This document shows, piece after piece, positions 10,782 through 28,549 of a stretch of DNA of 64,000 bases (positions within the stretch are counted from its first letter, which is position 1; every line of letters begins with the position of its first letter). The position numbers and the translations under genes were made by a program. The notes beneath the pieces are model-generated. The model ran no database searches. It was not told where the DNA came from and was given only the letters and a program-made list of their open reading frames with translations. This DNA is from an uncultured Bacteroidota bacterium (lineage in GTDB: Bacteria > Bacteroidota > Bacteroidia > B-17B0 > Aurantibacillaceae), in assembly GCA_903834765.1 (NCBI GenBank), contig CAILKE010000016.1, positions 2,686 through 66,685 of the forward strand. Reading direction: 5' to 3'.

Positions 10782-11456
10782 ATGAAAATGAAAACAACAG
10801 AAGAACAACCGTTATCTCCAACGCAACAAACTTTGATCGATCACCTTGAAAAATTTGCCAATTCACCGGTAGATTTAATTGTTACAGCAACTGGATTAAA
10901 CAAATTATTAGTCACTAATTCTTTAAAAATATTATTGGAGAAAAAGAAGCTAGTTGAAGTTTCTGATACAACTCCTCCAGTATACAATTTAGTAGCTACT
11001 ACTAAAAAAATTACAAATATTGCTGAGAAAAAATCAGTCAAAACTGAAACAGATAAGACTTCACTACCAAAAACTGAAGTAGCAAAAAAGAAAGCTGATG
11101 ATGAAGTTGTTTTAAAAAAAGAAAATGGTCGTGATACTTCTAAACTGAAATTTAATGGAAATGAATACGGAAAAGGAAGATTAGTATTAGCTGTTGTAAA
11201 AAAATATATGGAAGATAATCCTAGAACAACTTTAACAAAATTGAAAGAAGTATTTCCTGACGAACTACAAAATAGATATGGAATCATACAAGAAGTTGCA
11301 AAAGCAAAAAAGTTAAGTGCTGAAATTGACCGTTTTTTCTTTAAGCCTGAAGACTTAATCAAAGTTGGAGATAAAAAAGTTGCTGTTTGTAATCAATTTG
11401 GATCACACAACCTTCCATTAAAACATTTTAAGTCTTTAGGATTTGTAATTAAATAA
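10782..11456 (+). CDS. Hypothetical Lys-rich protein (possible winged-helix N-terminus)
   Basis: 224-aa ORF followed by a clean terminator. N-terminal 'SPTQQTLIDHLEKFANSPVDLIVTATGLNKLLVTNSLKILLEKKKLV' looks wHTH-like. The central region is K/E-rich. Confidence 0.55.
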   Translation: MKMKTTEEQPLSPTQQTLIDHLEKFANSPVDLIVTATGLNKLLVTNSLKILLEKKKLVEVSDTTPPVYNLVATTKKITNIAEKKSVKTETDKTSLPKTEVAKKKADDEVVLKKENGRDTSKLKFNGNEYGKGRLVLAVVKKYMEDNPRTTLTKLKEVFPDELQNRYGIIQEVAKAKKLSAEIDRFFFKPEDLIKVGDKKVAVCNQFGSHNLPLKHFKSLGFVIK

Positions 11457-11481
11457 AAACCACGCCATGGTTTTTAACGAG

Positions 11482-11500
11482 GGGAGCAATTATTGCTCCC
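11482..11500 (+). terminator. Rho-independent terminator
   Basis: gggagcaa-tta-ttgctccc (8-bp stem) followed by tttgttgttttt, 25 nt after the stop of 10782..11456. Confidence 0.7.
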
Positions 11501-11857
11501 TTTGTTGTTTTTATCGTTTCTCATTAGGTTTATTTAGGAGGAGAATGGTTTAAAAGCCATAACAATACTCATTTTAACAAAAACTATATTCTAGGTTTAA
11601 GCAGGAGGGCTGAGGAACATGTTTTAAAGCTAAATACAATGCTAATTCTTTAAAATTTCAAATAAGTACCCAAATTGTGCTCGTTTTGTATTAGTTCGTT
11701 TAAAGCTTTTACCCTGCGAATACAGTAACATTTCAAAATAAGTAACAAATCTTACATCAATTGGTTGTTTTGCTAAAATTTGCCGTCATTTTACTTGGGA
11801 GTACCCTTAAATTTTCTCATATTTGAACATAACGGTTTCAAAAAAGAGAAGTACTAA

Positions 11858-13468
11858 ATGGCAAAAATTAAGGCAGAAATAGCAAAACCAAAAGCAGATA
11901 TTGATTTTGAAAAAGAATTGTGGAATGTAGCCAATGAGTTACGAGGAGCAGTAGCAGAAAATCAATATAAGGATTATGTGTTGTCCCTTATTTTTTTAAA
12001 ACACATGAGTGAGCGTTATGAAACGCGCCGTGACGAATTATTACATTTAGTTAGCGAACCACAGTCAGAATACTTTACTAAAAATAAAAAAGAAGCCGAA
12101 GCAATAGTAAGTGATCCTGATGAGTACATTTCTAAAAACACGTTCATTATACCACATAAAGCCACTTGGCAATATTTACAGGATAATACTGAGCAGGATG
12201 ATATTAAAGTAAAAGTAGATGACGCGTTTGAATTATTAGAAAACACAATTGCAATTTTTCGTCCTGAGTTAAAAGGCATTCTTCCAAGAATATTTGTAAA
12301 GAGTCAATTATCAAGTAAACAGTTAGGTGGGTTAATTAATTTATTTTCTAATCCTAAATTTTCAGAAAAAAACAATCCTGAAAGTGATGTCTTAGGTCGG
12401 ATATACGAATACTACATTGGACGTTTTGCTATTGCTGAAGGTAGTGGTGCAGGCCAGTTCTTTACGCCTGGTTGTATAGTACGATTGCTTGTGGAAATGT
12501 TGGAGCCACTAAAAGGAAAGATTGCAGATTTTGCTTGTGGAAGCGGCGGAATGTTTGTGCAATCTTTAAAATTTATTAATGCACATGGCGGTAATAAAAA
12601 AGATATTTCACTATATGGACAAGAACGTTATGATGGAACATTACGTTTAGCTAAAATGAATTTGGCTTTACGTGACTTAAATTTTCAATTAGAGTTAGGT
12701 GATTCTTTATTACAAGATAAATTGCCAGAGTTAAAAGCAGATTACATTATTATGAATCCGCCATTTAATGTAAGCCAATGGCACCCTGAAGATTTACCTG
12801 AAAATGACCCACGTTTATTTAAACTAAAAGATAGTAACGACCCAGTTGTAACCGATGGTAACGCAAATTACATGTGGTTTCAAACTGTATGGAGCCATTT
12901 AAGTGATAGTGGAACTGCGGGTATTGTTATGGCAAATGGTGCCATGACCTCCAATAACAAAGGAGAACGTAATGTACGTGAACACATGCTTAATGAAAGC
13001 ATGATTGATTGCATTGTACGTTTACCGGATAAATTATTTTTAACTACTGGCATACCTGCATGTTTGTTTTTTTTAAGCAAAACACGCAAAGGAAATAAAC
13101 AGCATCGTGAACGTAAAAACGATGTATTATTCATAGATGCTAGTAAACTTGGTGAAATGACTAACCGTAAATTACGTGTGCTTACTGATGGAGAAATGGA
13201 ACGTATTGCTAATGTTTACCATAATTGGAGAAATACAAAAGGTAAATATGAAGACATACAAGCCTTTTGCAAAAATGCTACTTTACAAGACATTATTAAG
13301 CAAGATTACAAATTAACACCTGGTATTTATGTTGGTAGTGAAGATGCCGAAATTGATTTAATACCATTTGAAGAAAAAATGGACACACTTAAATCTACTC
13401 TTAAACAACAATTTGCTAAGAGTATTGAGTTGCAAAAACGTATTGAAAAAAATTTAAGTCAATTATAA
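11858..13468 (+). CDS. hsdM: Type I restriction-modification methyltransferase subunit
   Basis: HsdM N-terminal region ('FEKELWNVANELRG...YKDYVLSLIFLKHMSERYE'). SAM motif 'DFACGSGGMF'. Catalytic 'NPPFN'. Confidence 0.95.
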   Translation: MAKIKAEIAKPKADIDFEKELWNVANELRGAVAENQYKDYVLSLIFLKHMSERYETRRDELLHLVSEPQSEYFTKNKKEAEAIVSDPDEYISKNTFIIPHKATWQYLQDNTEQDDIKVKVDDAFELLENTIAIFRPELKGILPRIFVKSQLSSKQLGGLINLFSNPKFSEKNNPESDVLGRIYEYYIGRFAIAEGSGAGQFFTPGCIVRLLVEMLEPLKGKIADFACGSGGMFVQSLKFINAHGGNKKDISLYGQERYDGTLRLAKMNLALRDLNFQLELGDSLLQDKLPELKADYIIMNPPFNVSQWHPEDLPENDPRLFKLKDSNDPVVTDGNANYMWFQTVWSHLSDSGTAGIVMANGAMTSNNKGERNVREHMLNESMIDCIVRLPDKLFLTTGIPACLFFLSKTRKGNKQHRERKNDVLFIDASKLGEMTNRKLRVLTDGEMERIANVYHNWRNTKGKYEDIQAFCKNATLQDIIKQDYKLTPGIYVGSEDAEIDLIPFEEKMDTLKSTLKQQFAKSIELQKRIEKNLSQL

Positions 13469-13469
13469 T

Positions 13470-15512
13470 ATGGCAAAAAGAAATCTAACTACAAACTCCA
13501 GAATACTAAATGAACATCTTACAAAATACAGAAATACATTTTTTGCATTTTGTGAGTTAATAAACAATTCCATACAAGCAGGAGCTACAAATATCTCCAT
13601 TGATATTAAGTATCCAAAAGCTAATGCAGTTGCCACTTCTCCTGTAGAAGAAATAGTTATTAAAGATGATGGGAAAGGTGTTTCTAACTCTGAGTTTGAC
13701 CAAAAAATACTTGAGATTGGAACAACTTCTAAAGATGGTGGCGAAGGGATAGGAAGATTTGGAGCATTACAAATAGGCTCTAAAATGGAAATTGAAACCG
13801 TTGCGTATGACAAAAAAATTGACCAATTCACTAAAGTAAATTTTAATTTAGATTCAAGTCTATTTAAAAACAAAGAGCTAAAAGATCTCGATTTAGAAAT
13901 ACAATCTGAGGATTTAGGAAAAAACGATAAACCAACTTCTTATCAAGTTAAAATAAAGGAGCTATATCATGCGAAACAAGACACCGTTCAACGCAAAAAT
14001 AAAATAACAGAAGATTTTTTAGAAGAAAATATAAAACTTTCAATTTTCGAAAGATATACGTTACCAATATTTAATGAAAGTATTTCTTTTACAATCAATA
14101 AGCAAAAAATAAAAAAGAAAGATTTTTTAGAAGAAGAGCCTTCTAAAAAAACATTAAGCATTAAGGATCTCAAAGGAACATTAAGGAAAGTAAACCTATA
14201 TTTCTATAATATTAAAGTTAATTTAAAAAAAGTAAAAGTATTTTTTCAGGTTGAAAATGCTGGTATAAAAACAGTAGGTCATGAATACACATATTCATCT
14301 GACTGGTATACTCCTGATTTAGGAACATGGTTTGTTTATGTAGATTCTGATTTCTTCTCGAGTGATTTATTTAGAAATGTAGACTTTGGAGTTTATGCAG
14401 ATGATGAGTTAAGGAATTTACAAATTAATGTTAGAGCTGCGATTGACGAGTTTTTTAAAAATAGAAATAAAAAATTTGAAAAATTCGTAAATACTTTAGA
14501 AAGCGATACATACTATCCATTTAAAAAAGGCGAGCCTGTTATGGATACGCAACAGAACTTGTTTAATAAAGTAGCTTTTCTAATCGAAGAAGAACATAAA
14601 TTAATTGAAGGGGACAATAAAATTAGAAATTTTATATACCCATTAATAAATAGTGCCATTAGAGAGGGGAAAATAAAAGATATTTTCGAAAAAGTACTTA
14701 ATTTAAAAGCTGACACCATTGATAAATTCCATTCATTACTTGAAAAAACAGATTTGGAAGATGTTATTTCTTTTTCAAGTCAAGTGGCAGATAGATTACA
14801 ATTTTTAGATTTTTTAGAAAACATAACTTACGGAAAAGTAGCTGAATTTTTAAAAGAGAGAAAGCAGTTACATAAGATAGTCGAAAAAAATCTTTGGGTT
14901 TTCGGTGAAAATTATAATGGCACACCAGCATTGTGGTCGGACAAAAATTTAGGTAAAATACTAACTGATTTACATCAAGAAATTGAATATACTCCATCAG
15001 AACCAGATGATAATATTGATACTGATTTAAAGATAGAGGGAATAAGTGAAATCACAGATTTAGTTTTTTATAATGAAAAAATAACCGATGATGATTGCAG
15101 AGAGATTATGGTCGTAGAGTTAAAAGCACCTAAGTGTAAAATCTCACCAAAAGAATTAAGTCAAATATTTGGTTATGGTTATAAAATAAAAGAGAACTCT
15201 CAGTTTCCTTCTGATAAAGTAAAATATAAATTACTATTAATATCATCCAAAATTAATGGTAAAGCAGATACTCAGATTAAATCTAATAATTTACGTAAGG
15301 AAAAGCCTTTTTTATATCAAAAAATAGAAGAAAAAAATATTGAAATCTATGTTATGACTTGGGCTGAATTATTAGAATTGAATAAACGAAAATTGGGCTA
15401 CTTATCAAATAAATTAAAAGTAAAAGAGAAAGATGTTTCTGAGGTTTTTGAAGAAGAGTATCCGGAAATTGTTGATGCAACATTTACTTCACGAATGAGG
15501 AAAACAGCTTAA
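13470..15512 (+). CDS. GHKL (MORC/HATPase_c_3-like) ATPase with C-terminal PD-(D/E)xK-like nuclease motif
   Basis: Bergerat-fold motifs 'ELINNSIQAGA', 'DDGKGV', 'GEGIGRFG'. C-terminal 'DLVFYNE...IMVVELKAP' (~15050..15135) fits D...ExK. Starts 1 nt after the hsdM stop; TAATG overlap with hsdS. Confidence 0.65.
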   Translation: MAKRNLTTNSRILNEHLTKYRNTFFAFCELINNSIQAGATNISIDIKYPKANAVATSPVEEIVIKDDGKGVSNSEFDQKILEIGTTSKDGGEGIGRFGALQIGSKMEIETVAYDKKIDQFTKVNFNLDSSLFKNKELKDLDLEIQSEDLGKNDKPTSYQVKIKELYHAKQDTVQRKNKITEDFLEENIKLSIFERYTLPIFNESISFTINKQKIKKKDFLEEEPSKKTLSIKDLKGTLRKVNLYFYNIKVNLKKVKVFFQVENAGIKTVGHEYTYSSDWYTPDLGTWFVYVDSDFFSSDLFRNVDFGVYADDELRNLQINVRAAIDEFFKNRNKKFEKFVNTLESDTYYPFKKGEPVMDTQQNLFNKVAFLIEEEHKLIEGDNKIRNFIYPLINSAIREGKIKDIFEKVLNLKADTIDKFHSLLEKTDLEDVISFSSQVADRLQFLDFLENITYGKVAEFLKERKQLHKIVEKNLWVFGENYNGTPALWSDKNLGKILTDLHQEIEYTPSEPDDNIDTDLKIEGISEITDLVFYNEKITDDDCREIMVVELKAPKCKISPKELSQIFGYGYKIKENSQFPSDKVKYKLLLISSKINGKADTQIKSNNLRKEKPFLYQKIEEKNIEIYVMTWAELLELNKRKLGYLSNKLKVKEKDVSEVFEEEYPEIVDATFTSRMRKTA

Positions 15513-16693
15513 TGAATAACTGGAAAAAATATAAACTTACTGATTTGGGAACGTTAGCTAGAGGCAAATCTAAAAACAGACCTAGAGATGCTGCGTTTCT
15601 TTATGGTGGACCATATCCATTTATTCAAACTGGGGATATAAAAGGTTCTAATCATAGAATCTATAGTTATACTCAAACATATTCTGAAGCGGGATTAAAG
15701 CAAAGTAAGCTTTGGCCTAAAGACACTATATGCCTTACGATTGCTGCAAATATTGGTGATACTGCTATTCTAGATTTTCCCGCTTGCTTTCCTGATAGTG
15801 TATTAGGATTTATTGCAGATAAAACAAAATGTGATGTTGAGTTTATTGAATACCTTTTGCAACATTATAAAAAGGAAATTCAATCTCATTCAATTGGCTC
15901 AGTTCAAGACAATATAAATCTTGGAACATTTGAAAATGTAGAATTTAATCTCCCCACCCTCTCCGAACAACAAACCATTGCCGAAATACTATCATCATTA
16001 GATGATAAAATAGAACTCAACTTACAAATCAATAAAACCTTAGAGGAAATGGCTAATGCTTTATACAAACATTGGTTTGTTGATTTTGGCCCTTTTCAAG
16101 ACGGTAAGTTTGTTGAGAGTGAATTAGGTTTGATACCCGAAGGTTGGGAGGTTAAAACACTAGAATATATCGCTGACTTTAAAAATGGGAAAGGAATAAA
16201 AGATGAAGACAAGCATGAAAATGGTAAATACATTGTGCTCGGTTCAAATGGTATAGTTGGCAGAACCGATAAAGTATTATTTAAAGAACCTGTAATTGCT
16301 ACAGGAAGAGTTGGTGCAAATTATGGTGCAATTCACTATTCACTTCTTCCATGTTGGATTTCAGATAATGCTATTACCTCACAACCAATCATCAAAACCA
16401 ATTTATGGTTCCTGCTTAGATTATTACAAAACATCAATTATAATAATTTTGCTGTAGGTTCAGCCCAACCACTTATAACTCAAGGTGCGATAAAGAACAT
16501 TTTATTTGCATATCCTAATCAAAACATATTAGATAACTATTATTCTAAAGTTAATAATCTATATCTAAGTATTAATGAAAATAAAATTGAATGTGAAAAT
16601 CTTAAGCAGATCCGTGATTGTCTACTACCAAAATTAATTAGTGGAGAAATAGGAGTAAAGGATCCAGCTAAAAAAGTAAAAGAAGTATTGTAG
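15512..16693 (+). CDS. hsdS: Type I R-M specificity subunit
   Basis: Two target-recognition halves separated by the conserved 'LSEQQTIAEILSSLDDKIELN' helix. C-terminal 'LKQIRDCLLPKLISGEI'. Confidence 0.9.
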   Translation: MNNWKKYKLTDLGTLARGKSKNRPRDAAFLYGGPYPFIQTGDIKGSNHRIYSYTQTYSEAGLKQSKLWPKDTICLTIAANIGDTAILDFPACFPDSVLGFIADKTKCDVEFIEYLLQHYKKEIQSHSIGSVQDNINLGTFENVEFNLPTLSEQQTIAEILSSLDDKIELNLQINKTLEEMANALYKHWFVDFGPFQDGKFVESELGLIPEGWEVKTLEYIADFKNGKGIKDEDKHENGKYIVLGSNGIVGRTDKVLFKEPVIATGRVGANYGAIHYSLLPCWISDNAITSQPIIKTNLWFLLRLLQNINYNNFAVGSAQPLITQGAIKNILFAYPNQNILDNYYSKVNNLYLSINENKIECENLKQIRDCLLPKLISGEIGVKDPAKKVKEVL

Positions 16694-19600
16694 TGAGCAT
16701 AAACAAAATAAAAGATTTTGGGTTTTACAAACTCACTGCTCCTATACAGGAACAAGCCAATTCTTTTGTGTCTTATGTAGTGTCGCCCGATGGCAAATCT
16801 TATTTTATAAAAATACCAAAGGGTTTGCAAAGTGGTTCGGCAGCTGGGCGTATGTTTTCAAACATGCTTCAAAAATTAAAATCAATTAATAACCCTTACT
16901 TAGGCAAAGTAATTGATTATGGGTTTGAGCAAGGTTATGCTTACATTATTATGGAAGACTATAGCCAATATAAACCCTTGCAATTATTGGTTTCTGATAA
17001 TGGTTACAGCCTTTCAAAAACAATGCAGCTTTGGTATAAATGTGCTGCTGCTTTGCATACACTTTCAGGTTCTAATTTATTTCATCGCGATTTGCAACCT
17101 GCTAATATTTTAGTGCATAACGATGAACTAAAATTAGTTGATATTGGTTGGGCAGAATTGGAGCATACTATTAGCCAAACCGAACAACAACTAAACTTGG
17201 CAAAAGAGTTTGCAGCTCCCGAACTTATACAGCAAAATGAGTCGTTAAACCGCCGTCATAGTGATGTTTATTCCTTAGCACAAATTGTGGTTTATTTAAT
17301 ACTAGAGCACCAATTGTTTTACGAATACAGAAACACTGATAAACGATTGGAACTTATTAAAGAAAATTTTGAAAATCGTATTAGTGTAGATGCTTTAGAA
17401 CAATTATTACATACTCTAAAAAAATGCCTCGACCTTATACCACAAAACCGCTTTGGTAATTATGTGGAATTGCAAGAAGCTATTAAAAAATTAATAGATG
17501 CTGATACACTGGCACCTTTGGATGCCAAGGTAGATTCGATCTTACCACGGTTATCGAGATCACAAGACCATGAATTTTATAAGTGGAAAACGCTTATAAC
17601 CGAAGAGATGGATTTTATAAAGGCAAATGCCTTTACAGTATCCTATAGCGAAAGAACAATAGATGCTCAAAAATCGGAAGCTATTTTTAAGTTGCAGGAT
17701 ATTGAAGACCAAAAAGTAATGGACTTTATTAATAAAACCCGTAAGGAAGATGATATTACAATCGTAATACCTGGCACTCATAAAGATAGCAGAGGTCGCG
17801 CTGCCTCTATAGGCTATACTGAAAGCTATAACAAACAAAGCAAAGAACTAAAAGTAAAAAACTTTACAGGCGATGCCGATGCTATACCTATGCGCGGCAC
17901 CCTAGCCCAGGATATTGAAAAAGAATTAATACAATATAAACGTCAGCAAGCAGCTATTACCGATTTTAAAAAAGGCGACATGGTAAATCCTGAGTTGCGC
18001 AACTACTTATTTAACGCACATCAATTGCCAGAAGCAGGTTTTATAAATTCCAATCTTCAAATTATTTCTCAAACAAAACAACATACACCTGTTCCTTTTA
18101 AAAATTCACAACTCAACGCCGTTGAAAAAAGTTTGTTTCGAGCTCCTTATGTATTAATACAAGGCCCGCCGGGCACAGGTAAAACAACAGTTATTACGGA
18201 GGTCATAAGGCAATTGGTAAAACGTAATCCTGAAGTTAAAATATTAATAACCTCTCAAACCAATTTGGCAGTAGATAACGTGCTAAAAAAAATTGCTAGC
18301 GATAAAAACATTCGCTTTATTCGTTTAGGCGCCGAAGAACGCATTTCGTTTAATGAACTAAAAAAAGAATCGTACGAAAACAAATTAAAAACCTGGGGTG
18401 ATAAATCGAGAGAAAAATCAAAGGCGCATTTTAAAGCTCATTATAAAGCAACAGAACTTAATCCCATACTAAATACGATTGTATCAACCTTTGAAGCCAA
18501 TAAACACAATTGGAAAGAAGCTAAACAAAAACTAATGCAAGTATTGTCGTTTGGCAAGCACGCTTATGTTGGCTTATCATCTCATTTAGATACGAAGGAC
18601 ACTTTTGAAAAAGCCTTAAAACCGCTTTTACCGCAACAATATCATCAATACAGTCAGTTAAAAAACATACAGGATAAATGGTTGCAAATCATATCAAACA
18701 TACATGATAAACCTGCTATTACCGAACGCTTGATGCGAAGCGTAAATGTAATTGCATCTACCTGCAACCATATCGCCGCTGGTTTATACCGCAATCATAA
18801 ATTTAATTTCGATTATATGATTATGGATGAGGCTGCAAAAGCTACTTTGCCCGAAACCTTAGTGCCGTTAAATATGGCAAAAAACGTCATCTTAATTGGC
18901 GACCATAAACAGTTACCACCGTTGGTCTTATCAACCAAAAGTGTAAAAGAAAAGGTAGTGCAAAAACTAAAAACACAACTCGACGAAGAAAATATTGATT
19001 TTGATAAAATGTATTTAGAGGAGCCTACGCTCTTTGAAACTATGTACGAAAGTGCCTCTACCGATTACAAAGAGTTGTTGGATACACAATTTCGAATGCC
19101 CATAAGTTTAGGAAACATGGTTTCAAAATTTGTTTACAACCGTGATCTAAAATCAGAAGAAGGTATGTGTGGAGCTAGCCACACTATTTCAAACTTTGGC
19201 CCACTAGTATTTATTGATACTTCAACATCACCGTTACGATTTTCAAAACAAAACAAACACTCGCATAGCAATGCATATAATGCTAAAACAATTTTTAATG
19301 TATTGCAGTACATCGATCAATTTGAGGAAGTAAAAGGTTATACCATTGGTATCATCACAGGATATTTAGCGCAGGTAAGTGAGTTAGAAAAATTATTAAG
19401 TGGCAAAACATTTAAAAACATACAAGTACCCAATGATTTTAAACGAGCCAATGATAGAGAATTAGTGATCTCTACCGTTGATAAATTTCAGGGCAGTGAA
19501 AAAGACATTATTATTTTTGATGTGGTAAAAAGTGAAGTAAATGGCAGTCTTGGTTTTTTAGCGATGCCAAACCGCATTAACGTTGCCTTTTCGCGCGCCC

Positions 19601-19755
19601 AGCGCTTAATGATTGCTGTGGGCGATACTGACTTTATAAAAAACACAAGCTCTCAAATACTGGCAAAAAAAGTATTGTTGCAGGAATTTACTGAATATAT
19701 GTTAGATAAGGCCCAAGTCATAAACGCAGAAGAAATTGAAAAACTAAAACCTTAA
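16693..19755 (+). CDS. mkoA: Ser/Thr protein kinase fused to Upf1/DNA2-like SF1 helicase (type I Mokosh MkoA-like)
   Basis: Kinase: 'YFIKIPK', 'HRDLQPANILV' (~17083), 'DIGWAE', 'APE'. Helicase: 'GPPGTGKTT' (~18165), 'MDEAAKA', 'DKFQGSEKDIIIFD', 'RINVAFSRAQ'. GTG start overlaps the hsdS stop. Confidence 0.7.
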   Translation: MSINKIKDFGFYKLTAPIQEQANSFVSYVVSPDGKSYFIKIPKGLQSGSAAGRMFSNMLQKLKSINNPYLGKVIDYGFEQGYAYIIMEDYSQYKPLQLLVSDNGYSLSKTMQLWYKCAAALHTLSGSNLFHRDLQPANILVHNDELKLVDIGWAELEHTISQTEQQLNLAKEFAAPELIQQNESLNRRHSDVYSLAQIVVYLILEHQLFYEYRNTDKRLELIKENFENRISVDALEQLLHTLKKCLDLIPQNRFGNYVELQEAIKKLIDADTLAPLDAKVDSILPRLSRSQDHEFYKWKTLITEEMDFIKANAFTVSYSERTIDAQKSEAIFKLQDIEDQKVMDFINKTRKEDDITIVIPGTHKDSRGRAASIGYTESYNKQSKELKVKNFTGDADAIPMRGTLAQDIEKELIQYKRQQAAITDFKKGDMVNPELRNYLFNAHQLPEAGFINSNLQIISQTKQHTPVPFKNSQLNAVEKSLFRAPYVLIQGPPGTGKTTVITEVIRQLVKRNPEVKILITSQTNLAVDNVLKKIASDKNIRFIRLGAEERISFNELKKESYENKLKTWGDKSREKSKAHFKAHYKATELNPILNTIVSTFEANKHNWKEAKQKLMQVLSFGKHAYVGLSSHLDTKDTFEKALKPLLPQQYHQYSQLKNIQDKWLQIISNIHDKPAITERLMRSVNVIASTCNHIAAGLYRNHKFNFDYMIMDEAAKATLPETLVPLNMAKNVILIGDHKQLPPLVLSTKSVKEKVVQKLKTQLDEENIDFDKMYLEEPTLFETMYESASTDYKELLDTQFRMPISLGNMVSKFVYNRDLKSEEGMCGASHTISNFGPLVFIDTSTSPLRFSKQNKHSHSNAYNAKTIFNVLQYIDQFEEVKGYTIGIITGYLAQVSELEKLLSGKTFKNIQVPNDFKRANDRELVISTVDKFQGSEKDIIIFDVVKSEVNGSLGFLAMPNRINVAFSRAQRLMIAVGDTDFIKNTSSQILAKKVLLQEFTEYMLDKAQVINAEEIEKLKP

Positions 19756-21131
19756 TGGCTGAAAAATTCAGACATAACCATAAAAACCAAAAGCAAAGCC
19801 AAAAAGTTTTGCCCAATAGATCTTATAATAAGGTACAATCGTCACTATACGATGACTTTGAAAAAGCATACGGCATGGATTACATGTTACAAAACGTGCT
19901 GCAAATAGCATGGCCTGTGCATAAAGTAAAATTGGATGTGATAGTAACCGCAGAGCCCGAAAATGTTTTAAAAGAAATTCATTTTACCTTGTTGCAATTG
20001 ATTAAACTAAACATCAATACCTACGAAAGCATTGCTGCCTTTTTAGGATTGGAGCCAACCGACTTTTTATTAGATGAATTGTTGGAACTTCGAAAAAATT
20101 ATTTAATTGAATATCATAACGAGGCTTTTTATATAAAGCCTATGGGTGAAGATTATTTAATGGGTAAAATAAATATACCGGTTACCGAGAAAAAAGTGTA
20201 TGCCATTTGTATTGATGGTTTTACTAATGAAGTTATAAGAGATTACGAAATCACAAGAGCAGATGAAACCTTTCAACAAATTGAAGGACAATCTATAAAA
20301 ATTGATTATACTTTTATTGAAACGCATTGGTTAAACATTAGTGCCAAATATAAAGCCAATAACAAAGGCTTTGAAATTGTTGACTTAGCTAATGGCAGGC
20401 AGAGTGTGGATTCGCACCAGTTATTTGAAAAACGATACTTGATGATTTTTAAAGGTAAGGAAGGAGCAGAAGAAGGAAAGATAAAATTAAAGCTAGTAAA
20501 TGAAAGCCGTCAAGAATTCAGCAATGCATGCCAAGTAATAGAAACGTTTATTTTTAATTCTCCTGAAAACTACCTGCAAAAGTTTGAAGGATTTGAGTAT
20601 AAAGCGTCAAGTAAAAATAATGATCCCTTAAAAGATAAATTAAATGCTATTGACGGCTATTTGCACATTAATTTCCAAGAGGTAGATGATTATTTACGTT
20701 ACGCTTTAACGCATGGTAAAACCGTGTATTTAGAAGTACCACGTATCTTAAAAAAAGCGAAATCTTTTATTGATGACATTGAACAATTTTTAAAGAAACC
20801 CGAATCAAAATTATACCTCATTTACGGCGTAAGCCATGATTATAAACATGATGAGGGTATTCTATCTAAACTAAATGAATTAAAAAGAAGTTACCGTAAC
20901 TTTGTATTAATTGATTTACCTGACCATGCTTATAATATTGGATTGGAAGTGAGTGGTGTGCACAATAGAACCATTATTAAAGACAGTGACTTTTATATTG
21001 AAACTTCATACAATTTCTTTACATTAGATGTAGAAAGAAAAGAAAAGATTTCGGCGGAAACCGCAACCATATTTAAAAGAGAAGTAGAGGAATATTTAAA
21101 TAAACAAAAAAAATTGTACGGAATAAGGTGA
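19755..21131 (+). CDS. mkoB: Single-HKD PLD-family nuclease-like protein (MkoB-like)
   Basis: C-terminal 'HNRTIIKDSDFYIETSYN' (20961..) matches Hx(K)x4Dx6(G)SxN with Arg in place of Lys. TAATG overlap with the upstream gene and 4-nt overlap with hsdR. Confidence 0.6.
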   Translation: MAEKFRHNHKNQKQSQKVLPNRSYNKVQSSLYDDFEKAYGMDYMLQNVLQIAWPVHKVKLDVIVTAEPENVLKEIHFTLLQLIKLNINTYESIAAFLGLEPTDFLLDELLELRKNYLIEYHNEAFYIKPMGEDYLMGKINIPVTEKKVYAICIDGFTNEVIRDYEITRADETFQQIEGQSIKIDYTFIETHWLNISAKYKANNKGFEIVDLANGRQSVDSHQLFEKRYLMIFKGKEGAEEGKIKLKLVNESRQEFSNACQVIETFIFNSPENYLQKFEGFEYKASSKNNDPLKDKLNAIDGYLHINFQEVDDYLRYALTHGKTVYLEVPRILKKAKSFIDDIEQFLKKPESKLYLIYGVSHDYKHDEGILSKLNELKRSYRNFVLIDLPDHAYNIGLEVSGVHNRTIIKDSDFYIETSYNFFTLDVERKEKISAETATIFKREVEEYLNKQKKLYGIR

Positions 21132-24130
21132 GCGAATTAAAAGAGTTTCATATAGAACAAGCTGCTATTGAATGGTTACAGCAGATGGGTTATGTTTATC
21201 AGCATGGCGCGGCTATTACACGTGATGCTCGTACTGTAGTATTGGAAGATGAGTTGATGCAATTTATTGCTAAAACTTATCCTAAGCTTCCTGCTGATAT
21301 GGTGAAAGAAGCAGCTAAAGAATTTATTAATAATGCAGGTGCTGATATGGACTACCGTAACCGTGATTTTCATTTAAAACTCACTAAGGGAATTGATATT
21401 AGTTGGAAAGATTCAAGTGGCAAAGAATCTGCTTTGCATGTATATCCAATTGATTTCGAAAATCCACAAAACAATACTTTTACTTGCGTTAATCAATTAG
21501 AGATTGTTGGGCGTAACCGTCGCATCCCTGATTTACTTATTTACATCAATGGGTTACCCTTAATTATCTTTGAATTCAAAAATTGGTTTGATTATAACAC
21601 GACTGAAAACGAAGCTTACAATCAAATACAACATTACAAACAAGACATACCTTTATTATTTGAGTACAACGCCTTAACTATTATTAGTGATGGCAAAACC
21701 GCTCAACATGGTATGTTCCCAGCTAGTATGGAATGGTACTCGCCATGGAAATCCATAAATGGTAAAGACATTGTTGATGCCAATGATTTTCAATTAAACA
21801 CCTTATTGCATGGCTTGTTTGTAAAAGAACGGTTAATCAACTACTTAAAATATTTTATTTTCTTTGAAGATCATAATGGTACTTTAATAAAAAAAGGCGC
21901 TAAGTATCATCAATACTTTGGAGTAAACTTTGCGGTTGAAAAAACCAAGCAAGCTATTAAACCAATTGGTGATGGACGTATTGGTGTGATATGGCACACA
22001 CAAGGTTCGGGCAAAAGTATTTCGATGGCAATATACACAGGTATGTTACGTCAGTTACCTGAATTAAAAAATCCAACCGTAATTATTCAAGTAGATAGAA
22101 ATGATTTGGATTGGCAGCTTTACGAAAACTTTGTATTATGTAAAGACATTGTTGGCTCTGTGCAACATGCAACCAGTACTGATGAATTAAGACGTTTATT
22201 AGATACCGACGCAGGTGGTGTTATTTTTACCACCATTGAAAAGTTTCGTTTAAAAAAGGATGATGGCGAAATCCAACATCCAGTTTTATCAAAACGTGAT
22301 AACATCATTGTAATCGCCGATGAAGCGCACCGTACACAATATGGTTTATTGGATGGCTATGCAGCTAATTTAAGAACCGCTTTACCTAACGCTTCTTTTA
22401 TTGGATTTACTGGTACACCAGTAGATAGTAAACAAGCCGATACAGAAGAGTTATTTGGAGAGGTAATACATACCTATGATATTAAACAAGCGGTTGAAGA
22501 TGGAGCAACAGTTCCAATATACTATGAGCCACGTTTAGCAAAATTGCATTTAGCAAACGAAAACATTGATGAAGAAGTTGATGAATTGCAAGAAGCCCAA
22601 GGCGACCAACAATCTTTAAAATGGGCTGCTATTGAAGATGCAGCAGGTTCATTGGATAGAGTTTCAAAAATAGCAGAAGACATTATATCGCATTTTAACA
22701 AACGTACAGGCACCTTAGAAGGTAAAGCCATGGTGGTTTGTATGAGCCGTAAAAATTGCGTGAAGATGTATGATGCTTTAAAACAAATTGAAGGTTGCCC
22801 CGAAATAGCAGTTATTATTACTGCAAACATTTCTAAAGACCCACCAGAGTGGAAAGACCACATTAGAACCAAAGACCAATTTGAGGCGATTAAAAAACGT
22901 TTCAAAAATCCTGACGACCCTTTAAAAATTGTAATTGTACGTGATATGTGGTTAACAGGCTTTGATGCGCCTATTATCAATACCATGTATGTAGATAAGG
23001 TTATGACAGGGCACAATCTAATGCAAGCTATTGCCAGGGCTAATCGTGTGTTCGCAGATAAACAATCAGGTGTTATTGTAGATTATATTGGTATCGGTGA
23101 TCAATTGAAAGCAGCCACTATGAAATACACTCAAGGTGGTGGACGTGGTGATACAAAGATTGACATCGAGCAAGCTTTAGAAATGTTCTACAATCAAGTA
23201 GAAAAATGTAAAGCTCATATACCAGATAATATTAATTATCAAAAATGGAAAGTCTTGACTACTGGTGATAAAATGATGTTGATTAATGAAGGAATGAGTG
23301 TCATTTTAAAGTCAGATCAGTTAGCCGAAGAATTCATGCAAGATGAAAAAAAGTTAACTGGTTTAGTAAGCATTGTTAAAAGTAGAGAGGAGTTGGCAGA
23401 GTTTGCTTTAGATGTAATTTACATTCAGCATGTGTCAGCAGCGGTGCGTAAAGCAAAATCAATAGTAGTCGGTAAAAAAGACAATCAAAAGAAAGTACGT
23501 GATTTAATTTCACAAAGTATAGAATCGGAGGACATCATTGATGTATTTGCCATGGCTGGTATTGCTCGTCCTGATGTATCTATATTAAATGAAGAATTTT
23601 TATTAGGCGCTAAAAAAGATAAATCGGGATTAGCTTTAAAAATTGAGTTAATGCGTAACATTTTAAAGGGTGAAATAGCTTTACGTTTAAGAAAAAACAT
23701 AAAAAAATATACTTCCTTAAAAGAAGAAATAGAAAAAGTAATTGACCTCTATCATAAAAACGCTATTGATTCTTATACTACTATCCTTGAATTAGTAGAA
23801 CGTGCTAAGGACATGCAGGAAGAAGAAAAACGCCAAAAGGAATTAGGAATCACCGATGAAGAGTTGGCTTTTTACGACATCATCAATGCTAAAAAAGAAA
23901 TCATACAAGAAGCTGGACCAATACAAAACATAGTTCATGCAGTTTGCAAAGCAGTAAAAGATAATTTAGAAATTGACTGGACGAAGAAAGAAGATGCAAA
24001 AGCAAATATTCGTTTAGCTGTTAAACGAGAACTTAGAGGAAAAGTAAGTTTAGAAGAACTCAACATCATACTACAAGAAATTATGGAACAAACAGAAGGT
24101 CAATTTAAAGATTGGCCTATTGTTGGATAA
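21128..24130 (+). CDS. hsdR: Type I restriction enzyme R subunit
   Basis: N-terminal nuclease region ('PDLLIYINGLPLIIFEFK'). Helicase motifs 'TQGSGKS' and 'DEAHRTQ'. Length and domain order are typical of HsdR. Confidence 0.95.
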   Translation: MSELKEFHIEQAAIEWLQQMGYVYQHGAAITRDARTVVLEDELMQFIAKTYPKLPADMVKEAAKEFINNAGADMDYRNRDFHLKLTKGIDISWKDSSGKESALHVYPIDFENPQNNTFTCVNQLEIVGRNRRIPDLLIYINGLPLIIFEFKNWFDYNTTENEAYNQIQHYKQDIPLLFEYNALTIISDGKTAQHGMFPASMEWYSPWKSINGKDIVDANDFQLNTLLHGLFVKERLINYLKYFIFFEDHNGTLIKKGAKYHQYFGVNFAVEKTKQAIKPIGDGRIGVIWHTQGSGKSISMAIYTGMLRQLPELKNPTVIIQVDRNDLDWQLYENFVLCKDIVGSVQHATSTDELRRLLDTDAGGVIFTTIEKFRLKKDDGEIQHPVLSKRDNIIVIADEAHRTQYGLLDGYAANLRTALPNASFIGFTGTPVDSKQADTEELFGEVIHTYDIKQAVEDGATVPIYYEPRLAKLHLANENIDEEVDELQEAQGDQQSLKWAAIEDAAGSLDRVSKIAEDIISHFNKRTGTLEGKAMVVCMSRKNCVKMYDALKQIEGCPEIAVIITANISKDPPEWKDHIRTKDQFEAIKKRFKNPDDPLKIVIVRDMWLTGFDAPIINTMYVDKVMTGHNLMQAIARANRVFADKQSGVIVDYIGIGDQLKAATMKYTQGGGRGDTKIDIEQALEMFYNQVEKCKAHIPDNINYQKWKVLTTGDKMMLINEGMSVILKSDQLAEEFMQDEKKLTGLVSIVKSREELAEFALDVIYIQHVSAAVRKAKSIVVGKKDNQKKVRDLISQSIESEDIIDVFAMAGIARPDVSILNEEFLLGAKKDKSGLALKIELMRNILKGEIALRLRKNIKKYTSLKEEIEKVIDLYHKNAIDSYTTILELVERAKDMQEEEKRQKELGITDEELAFYDIINAKKEIIQEAGPIQNIVHAVCKAVKDNLEIDWTKKEDAKANIRLAVKRELRGKVSLEELNIILQEIMEQTEGQFKDWPIVG

Positions 24131-24142
24131 AAAATATAAATT

Positions 24143-24742
24143 ATGGCAGATTGTATTAAATGTGGCGCTTACACAAAATTTAATGGTGGCTTATGTTTAA
24201 GTTGCTACAAAAAAGATACTAAAGAAGATGTTTTAGTTGAAGAGCCAAGTGGTTTAAAAGACAAAGAATGGACTTATCATTATAATATGATTAAAGGTCG
24301 TATTGCTGAAACTTTAATCCAAGAATTGTTTTTAAGTCTTAAATTTAACGTATTCCGCTATGGTATGGAAAATACTATTCCTGGTATTATGGAGTTATTA
24401 AAAGGAGTAAGAACAGATGTAGCAAAGGATATTAAAAACATGCCTGATTTTGTTGTTCAAGACCCACGAAGTAATTCAGTATATTTTGTTGAAGTAAAAT
24501 TTAGAGCAGCGGAAACATTTAAAATTTCTGATTTACCAAAAGAGTATCCTTATACAAATGCTTATATTATTGTTGTTTCCAAAAAACACATCAAATGCAT
24601 TACTGTTGAGGAATTAAAAAACGGTAAAGAAATTACACCAACTTGTAAAAACTATCTTGGTAGTCGAAAAGAATTTGATTTAGATAAGGAAGTAATTATC
24701 GATTTCTGTGATTTTGCAGTAAAGTTTTTTGAGAACGTGTAA
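24143..24742 (+). CDS. Zinc-ribbon + PD-(D/E)xK nuclease-fold protein
   Basis: 'CIKCG...CLSCY' zinc ribbon. 'PDFVVQD' ... 'VYFVEVKFR' fits the D...ExK restriction-endonuclease fold. Starts 12 nt after the hsdR stop. Confidence 0.5.
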   Translation: MADCIKCGAYTKFNGGLCLSCYKKDTKEDVLVEEPSGLKDKEWTYHYNMIKGRIAETLIQELFLSLKFNVFRYGMENTIPGIMELLKGVRTDVAKDIKNMPDFVVQDPRSNSVYFVEVKFRAAETFKISDLPKEYPYTNAYIIVVSKKHIKCITVEELKNGKEITPTCKNYLGSRKEFDLDKEVIIDFCDFAVKFFENV

Positions 24743-24843
24743 GTAAATATAAAAACACATACACGAATTGAAAATTTAAGAATCTTAATTACTAAGTGTA
24801 TATGTTAATGAAAAAATCAATATAAATTAGAATAAATTTCAAC

Positions 24844-25416
24844 ATGGATGCTTCAACATATAAGGAATCAATTGATCTATATAAAAACAAATTATTAAAC
24901 CATCTTAATTCAGTAAGTTTAATAAGTCCACCTAATTTTAATTCATTTCCAATTGATTGTAGGCAGATTGACAGTTTTAAAGAAAAAAAATATAAAGCAT
25001 TAGTTGAAAAAGGTGTTTTAGATGGAGATACACCATACATTTATTACTTTAAGTTGGCTTCAAAATGTGATAAGAAAGCGCTAATAAATGAAATACAGAT
25101 ATTTAAAAGTAGTGAAGATAATAGTAAGGCTTTAAAATTACCTTTGGTTCATGGTCACTTTGATAGCGATATACTTTATGTTGGTAAATCTCAAGGTGAT
25201 TTTTTAACCAGGACTAAAGTTCATTTTGGATTTACTGGCGACAAAACTTATGGCTTACATTTAAAGAAGTGGTTTGACATTATAGGAATAAGTCCAGATC
25301 TTACACTTCAATTTTATTATGCTCCAATAGAGGTAAAAGATGAAAATTTAGTTGAATTAATTGAAAGTTCCTTACACCTTAAATTAAAACCTATATTAGG
25401 ACGTTCAGGCCACTAA
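24844..25416 (+). CDS. GIY-YIG-like nuclease-domain protein (divergent)
   Basis: 'YIYYF' ... 'ILYVGKSQGDFLTRTKVH' ... 'ELIESSLH' resemble GIY / YIG-R-H / E elements. The GIY-to-YIG spacing (~45 aa) is longer than canonical. Confidence 0.45.
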   Translation: MDASTYKESIDLYKNKLLNHLNSVSLISPPNFNSFPIDCRQIDSFKEKKYKALVEKGVLDGDTPYIYYFKLASKCDKKALINEIQIFKSSEDNSKALKLPLVHGHFDSDILYVGKSQGDFLTRTKVHFGFTGDKTYGLHLKKWFDIIGISPDLTLQFYYAPIEVKDENLVELIESSLHLKLKPILGRSGH

Positions 25417-25419: not shown

Positions 25420-26556
25420 ATGTATTTTCTTACACAACAAGACCCAAACTATACCATTAAAGGCTCCCGTGACCCATTAGGGTTTCAGGTGTTGTGGCAA
25501 GCTGCTGGCCGTAAACTAATACCTCATTTATCTACAGTATCAGGAAGTATTATTGATTTTCAAATAATATCATTAGCCTTTTACATAAAAAAAGAATTTA
25601 ATATTAGTGATGAAGAATTTAATTCGTTCTTCATTAAATTAGAACAACTAATGGCTTATTCAAGATTTAAGTTAAATGAAGAGACAGGTTTTAATGGTAT
25701 CGATAAAGTAAGAAAAACATTACAATCAGGAAGTTCTACCGTTAAAATCTCAAATGCAGAACAAATACTGTCTAACCAACGTGCTTATGGTATTTGGGGT
25801 AAATACAATAGACCATTTACTGATATGCAGTTAAAGGAGAATGAAGAATTTGATAAAATTTATAAATCAAAAATTGAAAACAACTCAGAATTCTTAAACC
25901 AAATAAAAGTATTAATTAAAAAAGGAGATACTGATACTGCCTCCGTTAGTATAGAAAAACTTTCTCATTTTACAAGCTTAATTAATAAACCTACTGATAA
26001 AGAAAAAGAACTATTTATCAATAAAATTCTACAAGATAATTGTGATGACGAGTTGCTTAAAATATTTTCTAGCAATCCAGAATTAATTAAATTGGGTGGT
26101 TACGAATTGTTTGAAAAAATTAGTTCAAATTCTAATAATCAAAAATTAAAGGCGGAAATTAAGCATATTGTAAATACAGAGAAAGTATTAAGCCCTTTAA
26201 ATAGAATATTCAGGCTTTTACAAACACAGTCATTTTGGTCAAAAGAGCAAATTGATAATAATGAAAACATTTCAAAATGGAGAACTAATGTTGATTCATC
26301 AGTTTTGGATTCAACAACGAAAGAACTTTCAATATTATTGCAAAAATCAAATTGGGAATTAGTATCAGGACTTGTTAAGCGTAACGAAGAAGTATCAAAT
26401 TTAAGGAATTCAGCGGCTTGGGTTCGCTTTGCAGCAAACGGCATAGAAGTTAATCATTTTGAAGGTGCTGGTGAGTGGGAATACAACCCCGAATCTGAAA
26501 TGGATAATAATTACTTTTTATATACCTATGTTTCTTTATTTGAACAGTTAAATTAA
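25420..26556 (+). CDS. Hypothetical protein, first tightly coupled partner of the PLD/SNF2 pair
   Basis: 378-aa ORF starting 3 nt after the previous stop. N-terminal 'GSRDPLGFQVLWQAAGRKLIPHLS' looks conserved, but I cannot assign a family. Confidence 0.6.
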   Translation: MYFLTQQDPNYTIKGSRDPLGFQVLWQAAGRKLIPHLSTVSGSIIDFQIISLAFYIKKEFNISDEEFNSFFIKLEQLMAYSRFKLNEETGFNGIDKVRKTLQSGSSTVKISNAEQILSNQRAYGIWGKYNRPFTDMQLKENEEFDKIYKSKIENNSEFLNQIKVLIKKGDTDTASVSIEKLSHFTSLINKPTDKEKELFINKILQDNCDDELLKIFSSNPELIKLGGYELFEKISSNSNNQKLKAEIKHIVNTEKVLSPLNRIFRLLQTQSFWSKEQIDNNENISKWRTNVDSSVLDSTTKELSILLQKSNWELVSGLVKRNEEVSNLRNSAAWVRFAANGIEVNHFEGAGEWEYNPESEMDNNYFLYTYVSLFEQLN

Positions 26557-26557
26557 A

Positions 26558-28549
26558 GTGGAGAAATTTATATTAAAAGAGAAGCTTAAAGAGCAAATTG
26601 ACAATAGGAAAGTTATTGCATCATTGTTCTATACTTTTAATTTTGATCCTAAGTTTTTTGAAAATTACATCATGCCTTTACTTATCCCAAAAGAAAAAAG
26701 TGAAAAATTTAGAGATGAAGTAATACATAATAAAATATTATGGAGGCAATATATTAAAGACGACATAATACCCCCTACAGCTGTATTCTGCGATTATTTC
26801 GCAAAAGATAATACAGAGGCACCATCATTAGGATATGACATACATTGTATTAGAACGCCTGCTGCACAGGGTAAAATATGTAATTTTCATCCAAAACATA
26901 TTTTTTTATTAGTTGAAGATGCTTCTAATACGTCATTAATTGTAGTTACAGGTTCTGGTAATATCACACCAAGTGGTTGGTGTGATAATATAGAATGCTT
27001 TTCAATAGAAGAATATAAGAAAAATAAAACTTTCCCAAATAAGACAACAACAAACATATTTCAAGACATAATAATTCAAACAGGGAAGCTAGCCAACTTA
27101 AAATTTTATTTGCCTGCTGAGGAGTTAATTAATGACTTTTTAAAATATGTTGATTATGAATTTCAATATTTTAATAGCACTGTTACTTCTTTTGAAGACT
27201 TTATAACTGAAAATATTTTATTAAAAGATACTATAACTGAAATTGAAATTGTATCTCCATATTTTAGTAATGATACTAAGTTAGTTTCACATTTAATGAG
27301 TAAGGGGATTAAAACAATCAAATGTTTAGTCCCAACATTAAAGGATAATGAAATACAAATTAATAAAGAAACCTTTGATACTTTAAGTGTTTCTGGTTTA
27401 AAATGGTCATTTTGGTCTGATTCGAAAATTAATAAAGAAGTAAGAAACTTGCATGCTAAAATATACAGGTTGCATGGTGAAAAGTATATTTATACAATTA
27501 TAGGTTCAGTGAACTTCACCAATCCTGCATGGAAAAAATTTGAGCAAAAAAATAACGAGGCCAATATTGAATCAGCCTATCTTTATAAAGAAAAAATGGC
27601 TATTAAATTATTAAAAGAGGCTAAAAATATTGATTTTAGCACCTATAATTTTATACCTAAAGAAAGTTTAGAAAACCAAATTGAAAATTTATTTAATCGA
27701 AATCCTCCTGATATAAGCTTTGAGATTGATTGGAAAAATAAATTAATTAAATACGAAGGCAAGAAAATAAATTCTGAATGTTTTTTCACTTCTTTGCTTG
27801 ATAAAAAAGTAATCACAACAGGTAAGCATGAGTATACTTTAAATAGCCAAGATTTAAAATCTCTTTCTAAGAATAGTTTAATTGAAGTTACTTTAATTAA
27901 TAACGGTAATACCGAATTTTATAGTTTTTATCCAACACAACTAAATTTTGAGTTCAAGCCACTAGATTTTAAAATTGATGCTTCAACAATTTTAAAATAT
28001 TGGCAATTTTTAGAAGATGAATTCCAAAAGGAAGGATTATTAAGTTTACTTATTGAGAGAATAACTGATGAATCAGGTATTGTGCATGAAGATAGAATTG
28101 AAAAAGTTTCTATTCTTAATGAAATGGCAACACATTTTAGCGCACTAATTAAACTAGAAGAATTTTTATTTTATAAAAAACTAACTTCTAAAACAGCTCA
28201 AAAGGAACATTTCAACTTTTTAAAGTATTACCTTTTATCTGAAAACATTGATACTATATCTTTCTACCTTGCAGATCTAGAAACCCAATTTCAAAACAAT
28301 AAAATTTACAAAACATTTTATTGGATGATTTTACAAATAATAATTAACAACTTTTATTTAAAGGCTGAAAAATGGGATTTCAAAAAGGAAATTGATAATA
28401 AAGAATGGAATGTTTTTAAAATCGACTTAAAACAAAAGCAAGAAACATTATCAATTTTAGCAAAAAATATTTCTAAAGAGCTTTCTGATGAAAATATAAA
28501 TCAGAAACTAGAGTGGGTAATAGAAAAATTAAAGGAAAATCATGAGTAA
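26558..28549 (+). CDS. PLD-superfamily protein with two HKD-like motifs plus ~330-aa unknown C-terminal region
   Basis: Motif 1 'FHPKHIFLL...VVTGSGNIT' (H111/K113, nt 26888..). Motif 2 'LHAKIYRLHGEKYIYTIIGSVNFT' (H299/K301, nt 27452..). GTG start 1 nt after the upstream stop. Confidence 0.75.
   Translation: MEKFILKEKLKEQIDNRKVIASLFYTFNFDPKFFENYIMPLLIPKEKSEKFRDEVIHNKILWRQYIKDDIIPPTAVFCDYFAKDNTEAPSLGYDIHCIRTPAAQGKICNFHPKHIFLLVEDASNTSLIVVTGSGNITPSGWCDNIECFSIEEYKKNKTFPNKTTTNIFQDIIIQTGKLANLKFYLPAEELINDFLKYVDYEFQYFNSTVTSFEDFITENILLKDTITEIEIVSPYFSNDTKLVSHLMSKGIKTIKCLVPTLKDNEIQINKETFDTLSVSGLKWSFWSDSKINKEVRNLHAKIYRLHGEKYIYTIIGSVNFTNPAWKKFEQKNNEANIESAYLYKEKMAIKLLKEAKNIDFSTYNFIPKESLENQIENLFNRNPPDISFEIDWKNKLIKYEGKKINSECFFTSLLDKKVITTGKHEYTLNSQDLKSLSKNSLIEVTLINNGNTEFYSFYPTQLNFEFKPLDFKIDASTILKYWQFLEDEFQKEGLLSLLIERITDESGIVHEDRIEKVSILNEMATHFSALIKLEEFLFYKKLTSKTAQKEHFNFLKYYLLSENIDTISFYLADLETQFQNNKIYKTFYWMILQIIINNFYLKAEKWDFKKEIDNKEWNVFKIDLKQKQETLSILAKNISKELSDENINQKLEWVIEKLKENHE

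Follow-up and report, generated by a model that had tools for sequence, protein, structure and literature searches.

A predicted type I Mokosh pair with an HxR variant of the HKD motif, embedded in a type I restriction-modification operon of Bacteroidota DNA

The mkoA and mkoB genes

In a 64-kb stretch of Bacteroidota DNA (G+C content about 33%), referred to below in its entirety as the window, we studied positions 16693-21131, where two overlapping genes encode a kinase-helicase and a phospholipase D (PLD) protein. Profile matches assign the two proteins, here named MkoA and MkoB, to the type I Mokosh defence system; their genes lie inside a complete type I restriction-modification (R-M) operon, and MkoB carries an arginine at the place of the lysine of the HKD motif. 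A previous reading of the DNA made from its letters alone (the sequence-only reading) had described overlapping genes for proteins of 1020 and 458 amino acids (aa) between hsdS and hsdR. The list of open reading frames (ORFs; 16693..19755 and 19755..21131) and the junctions, which we read directly, agree with this description, and the flanking R-M genes are complete. Six close-packed ORFs run on the plus strand from 11858 to 24130 in the order hsdM, a GHKL ATPase gene, hsdS, mkoA, mkoB and hsdR, neighbouring genes being separated or overlapping by 1 to 4 nucleotides (nt). The TAG stop of hsdS and the GTG start of mkoA overlap by 1 nt (taGtg), as do the TAA of mkoA and the ATG of mkoB (taAtg), and the TGA of mkoB overlaps the GTG of hsdR by 4 nt (GTGA).

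The mkoA-like gene (16693..19755, plus strand, 1020 aa) starts with GTG, which lines up with the Met start of homologues in an alignment, and its product matches the PADLOC MkoA model PDLC03920 with an E-value of 8.3e-150. The protein combines an atypical Hanks-type kinase at about aa 30-270 with a Upf1-like superfamily 1 (SF1) helicase at about aa 470-980, as reflected in Pfam matches to Pkinase (5.6e-22, aa 33-255), AAA_11 (4.2e-48) and AAA_12 (3.3e-39). Its top NCBIfam match is an IGHMBP2/Upf1-type helicase family, at 220 bits, far below the cut-off of 349. All the motifs that the sequence-only reading had listed for this protein were located: HRDLQPAN at 131, DIG at 150, APE at 175, GPPGTGKTT at 491, DEAA at 712, QGSEKD at 933 and FSRAQ at 966. 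An alignment with ten homologues (31-86% identity) shows no variation at K40, D133, N138 and D150 of the kinase or in any SF1 helicase motif, the Walker A (GPPGTGKTT, 491) and Walker B (DEAA, 712) motifs included. No Gly-rich loop or alphaC Glu can be recognised in the kinase, which is true of the whole family. From this alignment the catalytic residues of both the kinase and the helicase are predicted to be intact. The window protein does not have a segment of about 140 aa between kinase and helicase (alignment columns ~316-465); this segment is also absent from an 86%-identical relative found in another sample (P0010), and present in the other aligned homologues, which measure 1100-1170 aa.

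The mkoB-like gene (19755..21131, plus strand, 458 aa) starts with ATG and its product matches the PADLOC MkoB model PDLC03922 with an E-value of 3.5e-13 over aa 47-431. Relatives of MkoB, gathered by an exhaustive profile search (119 proteins) and a word-indexed search (8), gave a graded series of scores against this model: canonical-type proteins reach 1e-67 to 1e-79, Bacteroidota relatives with the usual HxK motif 1e-21 to 1e-33, and members with the HxR motif 1e-13 to 1e-24, the clade of the window protein standing at about 1e-13. A rerun of the word-indexed search with a 23-sequence alignment added little. The closest relatives of the window pair are Bacteroidota, and the weak score of the window MkoB is explained by the distance of this whole Bacteroidota branch from the model, not by membership of another family. 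There is also a weak match to the PADLOC DrmC model (0.004). With matches of the PADLOC Mokosh models to both proteins, the assignment to Mokosh proposed in the sequence-only reading stands; the definition of type I Mokosh that it had given proved accurate as well, since Millman et al. describe the same gene pair.

The predicted layout of MkoB comprises a basic N-terminal tail, a winged helix at about aa 70-127 that has a structural match to CggR, a middle domain, and a PLD domain with a single motif at about aa 300-458. We modelled the protein with AlphaFold2 on a 57-sequence alignment and obtained a mean confidence (pLDDT) of 88.2; an earlier model built from 8 sequences (pLDDT 67.8), with a poor C-terminus, was not used. 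Foldseek matched the C-terminal ~160 residues to Nuc (1byr, TM score 0.65 on the target), NucT, Zucchini and PLD1, and also to SauUSI in its PLD domain. The C-terminus of MkoB is therefore predicted from the model to have a PLD fold of the Nuc/Zucchini kind, as the sequence-only reading had suggested. We rejected, at the sequence level, the idea that the middle domain could be a second PLD lobe that has degenerated (hhalign probability 0.2%).

The HxR motif and its co-varying residues

The motif in question lies at 20961..21014 on the plus strand (codons CAC AAT AGA ... AAT) and reads H403 N R405 TIIK D410 SDFYIE T417 S418 Y N420. It has the exact spacing of HxKx4Dx6GSxN, with Lys replaced by Arg and Gly by Thr, and so corresponds to the variant that the sequence-only reading had pointed out. 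The window MkoB departs in this way from the canonical HxKx4D site, the lysine that contacts the scissile phosphate being R405. The remaining catalytic positions are retained: H403, D410, N420 and E435 do not vary across the 57 aligned MkoB sequences, and S418 is invariant or nearly so.

Arginine is found at this position in 12 of the motif-bearing proteins of the profile search, namely P0001 to P0008, which form the clade of the window protein, and P0129, P0134, P0135 and P0136; the remaining motif-bearing proteins have HxKx4Dx6GSxN or close variants of it. The His, Asp, Ser/Thr and Asn positions are kept in all 12. The arginine is written with different codons among these members (AGA, CGC and CGT), which argues that it is maintained by selection.

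We then counted, in the 57-sequence alignment, the residues that change together with R405 (10 HxR and 47 HxK members). In the window protein, V328-P329-R330 (20736..20744, plus strand) belongs to an E-V-P-R strand that is E-S-P-W in canonical MkoB. Position 330 is Arg in 10/10 HxR members and Trp in 46/47 HxK members; position 422 is Phe in 10/10 and Leu in 46/47, respectively; and position 328 is Val (8) or Met (2) in the HxR members and Ser in 45/47 HxK members. No position was found in this alignment that is Lys in HxR members and non-Lys elsewhere, as would be expected of a lysine that had "migrated" to replace K405. The question of whether HxR is a feature of a clade, raised in the sequence-only reading, is thus answered in the affirmative: all 12 members found carry it, and the 10 of them in the alignment also carry three coupled substitutions.

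The history of the variant was addressed with bootstrapped neighbour-joining trees (200 replicates). On full-length sequences, with the co-varying sites removed, the window clade groups with P0129 with 96.5% support and P0134 groups with P0136 with 98.5% support, the two groups being joined in 0/200 replicates, whereas trees of the PLD domain alone bring the HxR proteins together in 36% of replicates. This difference suggests that the HxR pocket either arose twice or moved between lineages.

To place the variant among named organisms, we surveyed 80 MkoA loci (L012-L091) found with an MkoA scan of GTDB species representatives, 64 of them with a readable MkoB motif. All 64 have HxK, and 62 have E-S-P-W, from which we conclude that the HxR form is rare and absent from named representatives. 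Pattern scans for MkoB in genome and metagenome contigs returned nothing that could be confirmed, and the HxR clade occurs in no named genome among those scanned. Our literature search found no paper on an HxRxxxxD motif. Judged by these alignments, S328V/M, W330R, K405R and L422F are four coupled substitutions that mark out a rare lineage of MkoB, which evolves under purifying selection.

Embedding in type I R-M operons and exchange of the cassette

The operon that carries the pair begins with hsdM (11858..13468, plus strand, 536 aa), the methyltransferase subunit, with Pfam matches to N6_Mtase (1.1e-90) and HsdM_N (4.8e-23) and a match to PADLOC MTase_I (1e-133). The specificity subunit gene hsdS (15512..16693, plus strand, 393 aa) encodes two target-recognition domains, seen as two stretches of Pfam Methylase_S (2.1e-42), and matches PADLOC Specificity_I (6.2e-99) over 1-385 of its 393 residues. 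The restriction subunit gene hsdR (21128..24130, plus strand, 1000 aa) matches PADLOC REase_I (1.8e-260) over residues 3-969 and has the Pfam domains HSDR_N, SWI2_SNF2, T1R_D3-like and T1RH-like_C. The type I system is therefore complete, with co-oriented hsdM, hsdS and hsdR and full-length matches to the three PADLOC models. Between hsdM and hsdS, a variable cargo slot is occupied by the GHKL-type ATPase gene (13470..15512, plus strand, 680 aa; Pfam HATPase_c_3 5.6e-17), whose product weakly matches HSDR_N_2 (aa 498-575), MzaB and MutL. We take this ATPase to resemble the MORC-like GHKL ATPases that have been reported from R-M operons (Iyer, Abhiman and Aravind 2008). Upstream of hsdM, at 11475-11507, there is a strong terminator-like hairpin with a 15-bp stem and a T-run after it; the six-gene block contains no comparable terminator. 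Matches to sigma-70 promoters were at the level expected from shuffled sequence, the sigma-70 consensus being uninformative for Bacteroidota.

The layout hsdS-mkoA-mkoB-(other cargo)-hsdR was found in five distinct versions: that of the window (L001) and, with the identity of their MkoB to that of the window, those of L092 (85%), L002/L003 (66%), L009 (45%) and a contig of GCA_041447055.1 (45%). The cargo at the other slots of the operon differs between them, with the GHKL ATPase in the window, a 182-aa ORF in L002 and L009, and DUF900-like genes in L092. In this last locus, which holds the closest relative, DUF900-like ORFs of 266 aa and 332 aa lie upstream of hsdS, and an 84-aa ORF and a zeta-toxin-like ORF of 279 aa stand between mkoB and hsdR (8207-9260).

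Embedding is not restricted to pairs with the HxR motif. The metagenome-assembled genome Bacteroidetes bacterium GWF2_35_48 (L049, 913-14656) carries an HxK Mokosh pair in a homologous hsd operon, where HsdR is 63% identical to that of the window, hsdS is apparently split (251 + 103 aa) and mkoB overlaps hsdR by 4 nt; further cargo consists of a pair of AAA+ ATPase and S8 subtilase genes, and a WYL-domain gene follows the operon. Conversely, the HxR pairs of L011 and L008 have no flanking hsd genes. In L008 (390-8633) the pair of P0129, the HxR pair farthest from the window clade (HQR motif, CGC codon), is directly followed by a gene for Tiamat TmtA (PADLOC E-value 1.3e-196). Because an embedded HxK pair exists in L049 and HxR pairs exist outside hsd operons in L008 and L011, hsd embedding and HxR are separable features, and embedding recurs in relatives without being tied to the variant motif.

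Other arrangements occur as well. The pair of L007, an HxK pair of Lacinutrix himadriensis, is beside hsdR, outside an hsd operon, and that of L004 adjoins GmrSD. Among the 64 HxK pairs of GTDB representatives, L049 is the only one clearly embedded and L060 is possibly so. An hsd gene lies no more than 7 kb away in 16 of the 80 Mokosh I loci of these representatives, mostly in Bacteroidota, which suggests a wider tie of this Mokosh branch to type I R-M; mkoAB is directly downstream of hsdR in L013, L020, L021, L052, L062, L068 and L090.

A comparison of two metagenome contigs, L002 (5386-11221) and L009 (5275-11230), bears on how the embedded pairs are exchanged. The DNA on the two sides, which carries a helix-turn-helix gene, hsdM, hsdR, a DUF4379 gene and an integrase, is 98% and 95% identical, and HsdM and HsdR are 100% and 97% identical, respectively; HsdS is 44%, MkoA 52% and MkoB 48% identical. 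The breakpoints at the DNA level fall at the start of hsdS and, on the right-hand side, at the HxR motif codons of mkoB. Such a diverged hsdS-mkoA-mkoB segment between near-identical flanks indicates that hsdS and the Mokosh pair were swapped as a cassette, on an element with an integrase at its end. We infer that hsdM and hsdR may serve as conserved flanks for the recombinational exchange of hsdS and defence cargo.

The neighbourhood of the operon in the window contains further genes of interest. Directly downstream of hsdR, after small ORFs at 24143-25416, three genes at 25420-31613 on the plus strand match the PADLOC candidate system PDC-M27 A, B and C (3e-16, 3.5e-29 and 3.8e-59). The product of gene B contains a PLDc_2 domain with HAK...GSVN, and that of gene C is an SNF2/DrmD-like helicase; this block, which looks like a second defence system, is followed by a resolvase gene (32180-32881, minus strand). 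On the other side, a 224-aa ORF (10782-11456, plus strand) with a weak match to the PADLOC candidate PDC-S57 (7e-08) precedes the 11475-11507 hairpin. The window also encodes a type IX secretion system (T9SS) sorting domain and a gliding-motility-like protein.

Function of the pair and comparison with known systems

Taking these observations together, we consider it probable that a complete type I R-M operon in the window carries a type I Mokosh pair as cargo, and that this pair, with a working HxR site, provides a second line of defence of its own. The mkoAB genes would be co-transcribed with the R-M genes, and the pair would defend the cell beside R-M and independently of it. The helicase of MkoA may translocate with ATP on phage RNA or on an RNA/DNA intermediate, according to the hypothesis of Millman et al. 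MkoB, presumably a dimer that pairs two single-motif PLD domains, would cut nucleic acid through a phosphohistidine intermediate, with R405 and R330 taking over the phosphate contacts. Conservation together with coupled change makes it most likely, in our view, that the phosphate-binding pocket has been remodelled and still works, rather than having lost its function.

Several points weigh against this account. Replacement of the HKD lysine by arginine inactivates mammalian PLD1 (K898R) and PLD2 (K758R), and the HKD motif has been termed invariant in PLD nucleases (10.1101/2025.07.10.664194), so that the activity of the HxR form is not assured; the type I Mokosh complex could not be purified (10.1101/2025.07.10.664194). 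Then, the window MkoB has no Pfam or NCBIfam match of its own, the window MkoA is short of its inter-domain segment, and the top Foldseek matches of MkoB also include the DUF1669 domain of FAM83. This domain is a catalytically inactive pseudo-PLD.

Some of these points feed the alternative that survives best, although we hold it to be rather unlikely, namely that HxR MkoB is a pseudo-nuclease whose PLD domain is kept as a module for binding nucleic acid or phosphate. The defence output would then fall to the kinase and helicase of MkoA, for instance through abortive-infection phosphorylation, or to a different nuclease. Besides the loss of activity that the same substitution causes in PLD1 and PLD2 and the resemblance to FAM83 DUF1669, the motif Gly is lost too (GS to TS/TT), and the window protein escapes Pfam PLDc_2, which matches 41 of the 57 family members. 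A domain freed from catalysis is, however, hard to reconcile with H403, D410, S418, N420 and E435 being invariant down to 23% overall identity, or with the motif block being the best-conserved part of MkoB. The coupled second arginine (W330R), present in two lineages, resembles compensation and not decay, and arginine is still able to bind phosphate.

A working site in an independent layer has also to be weighed against the possibility, which we regard as unlikely, that the six genes form one integrated system with Mokosh coupled to the Hsd complex. The pair could be a PrrC-like guard that fires once the type I enzyme has been put out of action by an anti-restriction protein of a phage, or, as in MADS, methylation by HsdMS could serve as the signal that separates self from non-self. 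Conservation of the layout in five distinct versions, the start/stop overlaps that run across hsdS-mkoA-mkoB-hsdR and the joint replacement of hsdS and mkoAB between L002 and L009 are consistent with such coupling; so are the precedents of PrrC, almost only found inside type I R-M, and of MADS, whose methylase, specificity and kinase genes are all needed, and a weak mad6 match that covers the kinase domain alone (PADLOC 3.3e-25; NCBIfam 67.8 bits versus a cut-off of 460). Coupling to hsdR is nevertheless not conserved, given the zeta-toxin-like pair between mkoB and hsdR in L092, and HxR pairs exist away from hsd (L011 and L008). Embedding is the exception among relatives in named genomes (of the 64 HxK pairs, it is clear for L049 and possible for L060), the slot between hsdM and hsdR holds many unrelated cargos, PADLOC gave no mad7, mad8 or PrrC match in the operon proteins, and TgvAB, embedded in a like manner, works without HsdR.

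A stronger version joins several of these ideas and seems to us more doubtful still: an HxR/R330/F422 site, active with altered chemistry or substrate preference, would have arisen or spread more than once, in hsd-embedded Mokosh pairs that are wired to the type I enzyme. The two arginines would replace the Lys/Trp pair, and Mokosh would fire when anti-restriction proteins block HsdR, in the manner of PrrC. If true, the "invariant" HKD lysine would have an exception in nature, and R-M would be tied to an RNA-helicase defence system by a guard-type link that is new. Finally, we strongly disfavour, as a very improbable explanation, a decaying insertion in which the absence of ~140 aa from MkoA and the loss of the catalytic Lys of MkoB are signs of pseudogenisation, because both ORFs are intact and very long for AT-rich DNA, the short MkoA form is common to the 86%-identical relative from another sample, the kinase and helicase catalytic residues are all retained, and the Arg is kept across synonymous codon changes.

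The HxR lineage offers a ready-made mutational test of what a PLD pocket needs, as the "invariant" Lys and three coupled residues have been replaced in it. Activity of the HxR form would widen the sequence definition now accepted for PLD nucleases; at present HMM and motif filters, Pfam PLDc_2 for one, overlook HxR proteins. The exchange of hsdS-mkoA-mkoB is in turn a clear case in which a type I R-M operon serves defence cargo as a recombination scaffold, and it backs searches based on "guilt by embedding".

That defence genes can be embedded in type I R-M operons is well established (Payne et al., 10.1101/2024.01.29.577857; TgvAB, PMC11411939), and PrrC has been reported almost exclusively in such a position (10.1101/2024.01.29.577857); the main text of Payne et al. 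makes no mention of Mokosh (10.1101/2024.01.29.577857). Like the PrrC/EcoprrI locus, the window has a non-R-M defence gene inside a type I R-M operon, and position is all that is shared, since PrrC is an ABC-ATPase with an anticodon nuclease and shows no homology. Membership of PrrC was rejected, as no operon protein matches PrrC in PADLOC. The operon resembles MADS (Maestri et al.) in mixing methylase, specificity subunit, kinase and nuclease/ATPase genes, with weak mad2, mad5 and mad6 matches; MAD6, MAD7 and MAD8 are mandatory in the model of those authors, and MADS was rejected on the lack of mad7 and mad8 matches among the operon proteins in PADLOC and on a mad6 match confined to the kinase domain; a complete HsdR is a further difference from MADS. 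TgvAB of Vibrio cholerae VPI-2 comes closer in arrangement, being a two-gene defence module within a type I R-M cluster and in the same orientation, an embedding that has been interpreted as complementary layering with co-regulation (PMC11411939; 10.1101/2024.01.29.577857). Unlike the kinase-helicase and PLD pair of the window, TgvAB belongs to the GmrSD-like type IV restriction systems.

At the level of the fold, MkoB has in common with Nuc, NucT and Zucchini/PLD6 a domain some 150 aa long and the placement of His, Asp, Ser and Asn, and differs from them by the Lys to Arg change, by about 290 additional N-terminal aa that form a winged helix and a middle domain, and by its helicase partner. 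E435 stands at the place expected of the Glu that partners the catalytic His in Nuc (Stuckey and Dixon 1999).

The nearest known system remains type I Mokosh, which consists of a gene for a serine/threonine kinase with a COG1112 helicase plus a separate PLD gene and has been validated in E. coli (Millman et al. 2022, 10.1101/2022.05.11.491447), where anti-phage activity reportedly depends on ATP binding by the helicase and on the PLD active site (10.1101/2022.05.11.491447); it has been likened to the eukaryotic MOV10L1/Zucchini pair of the piRNA pathway (10.1101/2022.12.12.520048). The window pair agrees with it in the fusion of a kinase to a COG1112/Upf1-like SF1 helicase, in the adjacent single-motif PLD gene and in the matches of the PADLOC Mko models to both proteins, and both are assigned to this family on those sequence profiles. 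It differs in having HxRx4Dx6TSxN in place of HxKx4Dx6GSxN, with the coupled W330R, L422F and S328V, in the ~140-aa segment missing from MkoA, in the distance of MkoB from the model (3.5e-13) and in the hsd embedding of the pair. The basic picture is therefore unchanged: the system and the type of context were already known, and what is new is the active-site variant, together with a clear pattern of cassette exchange.

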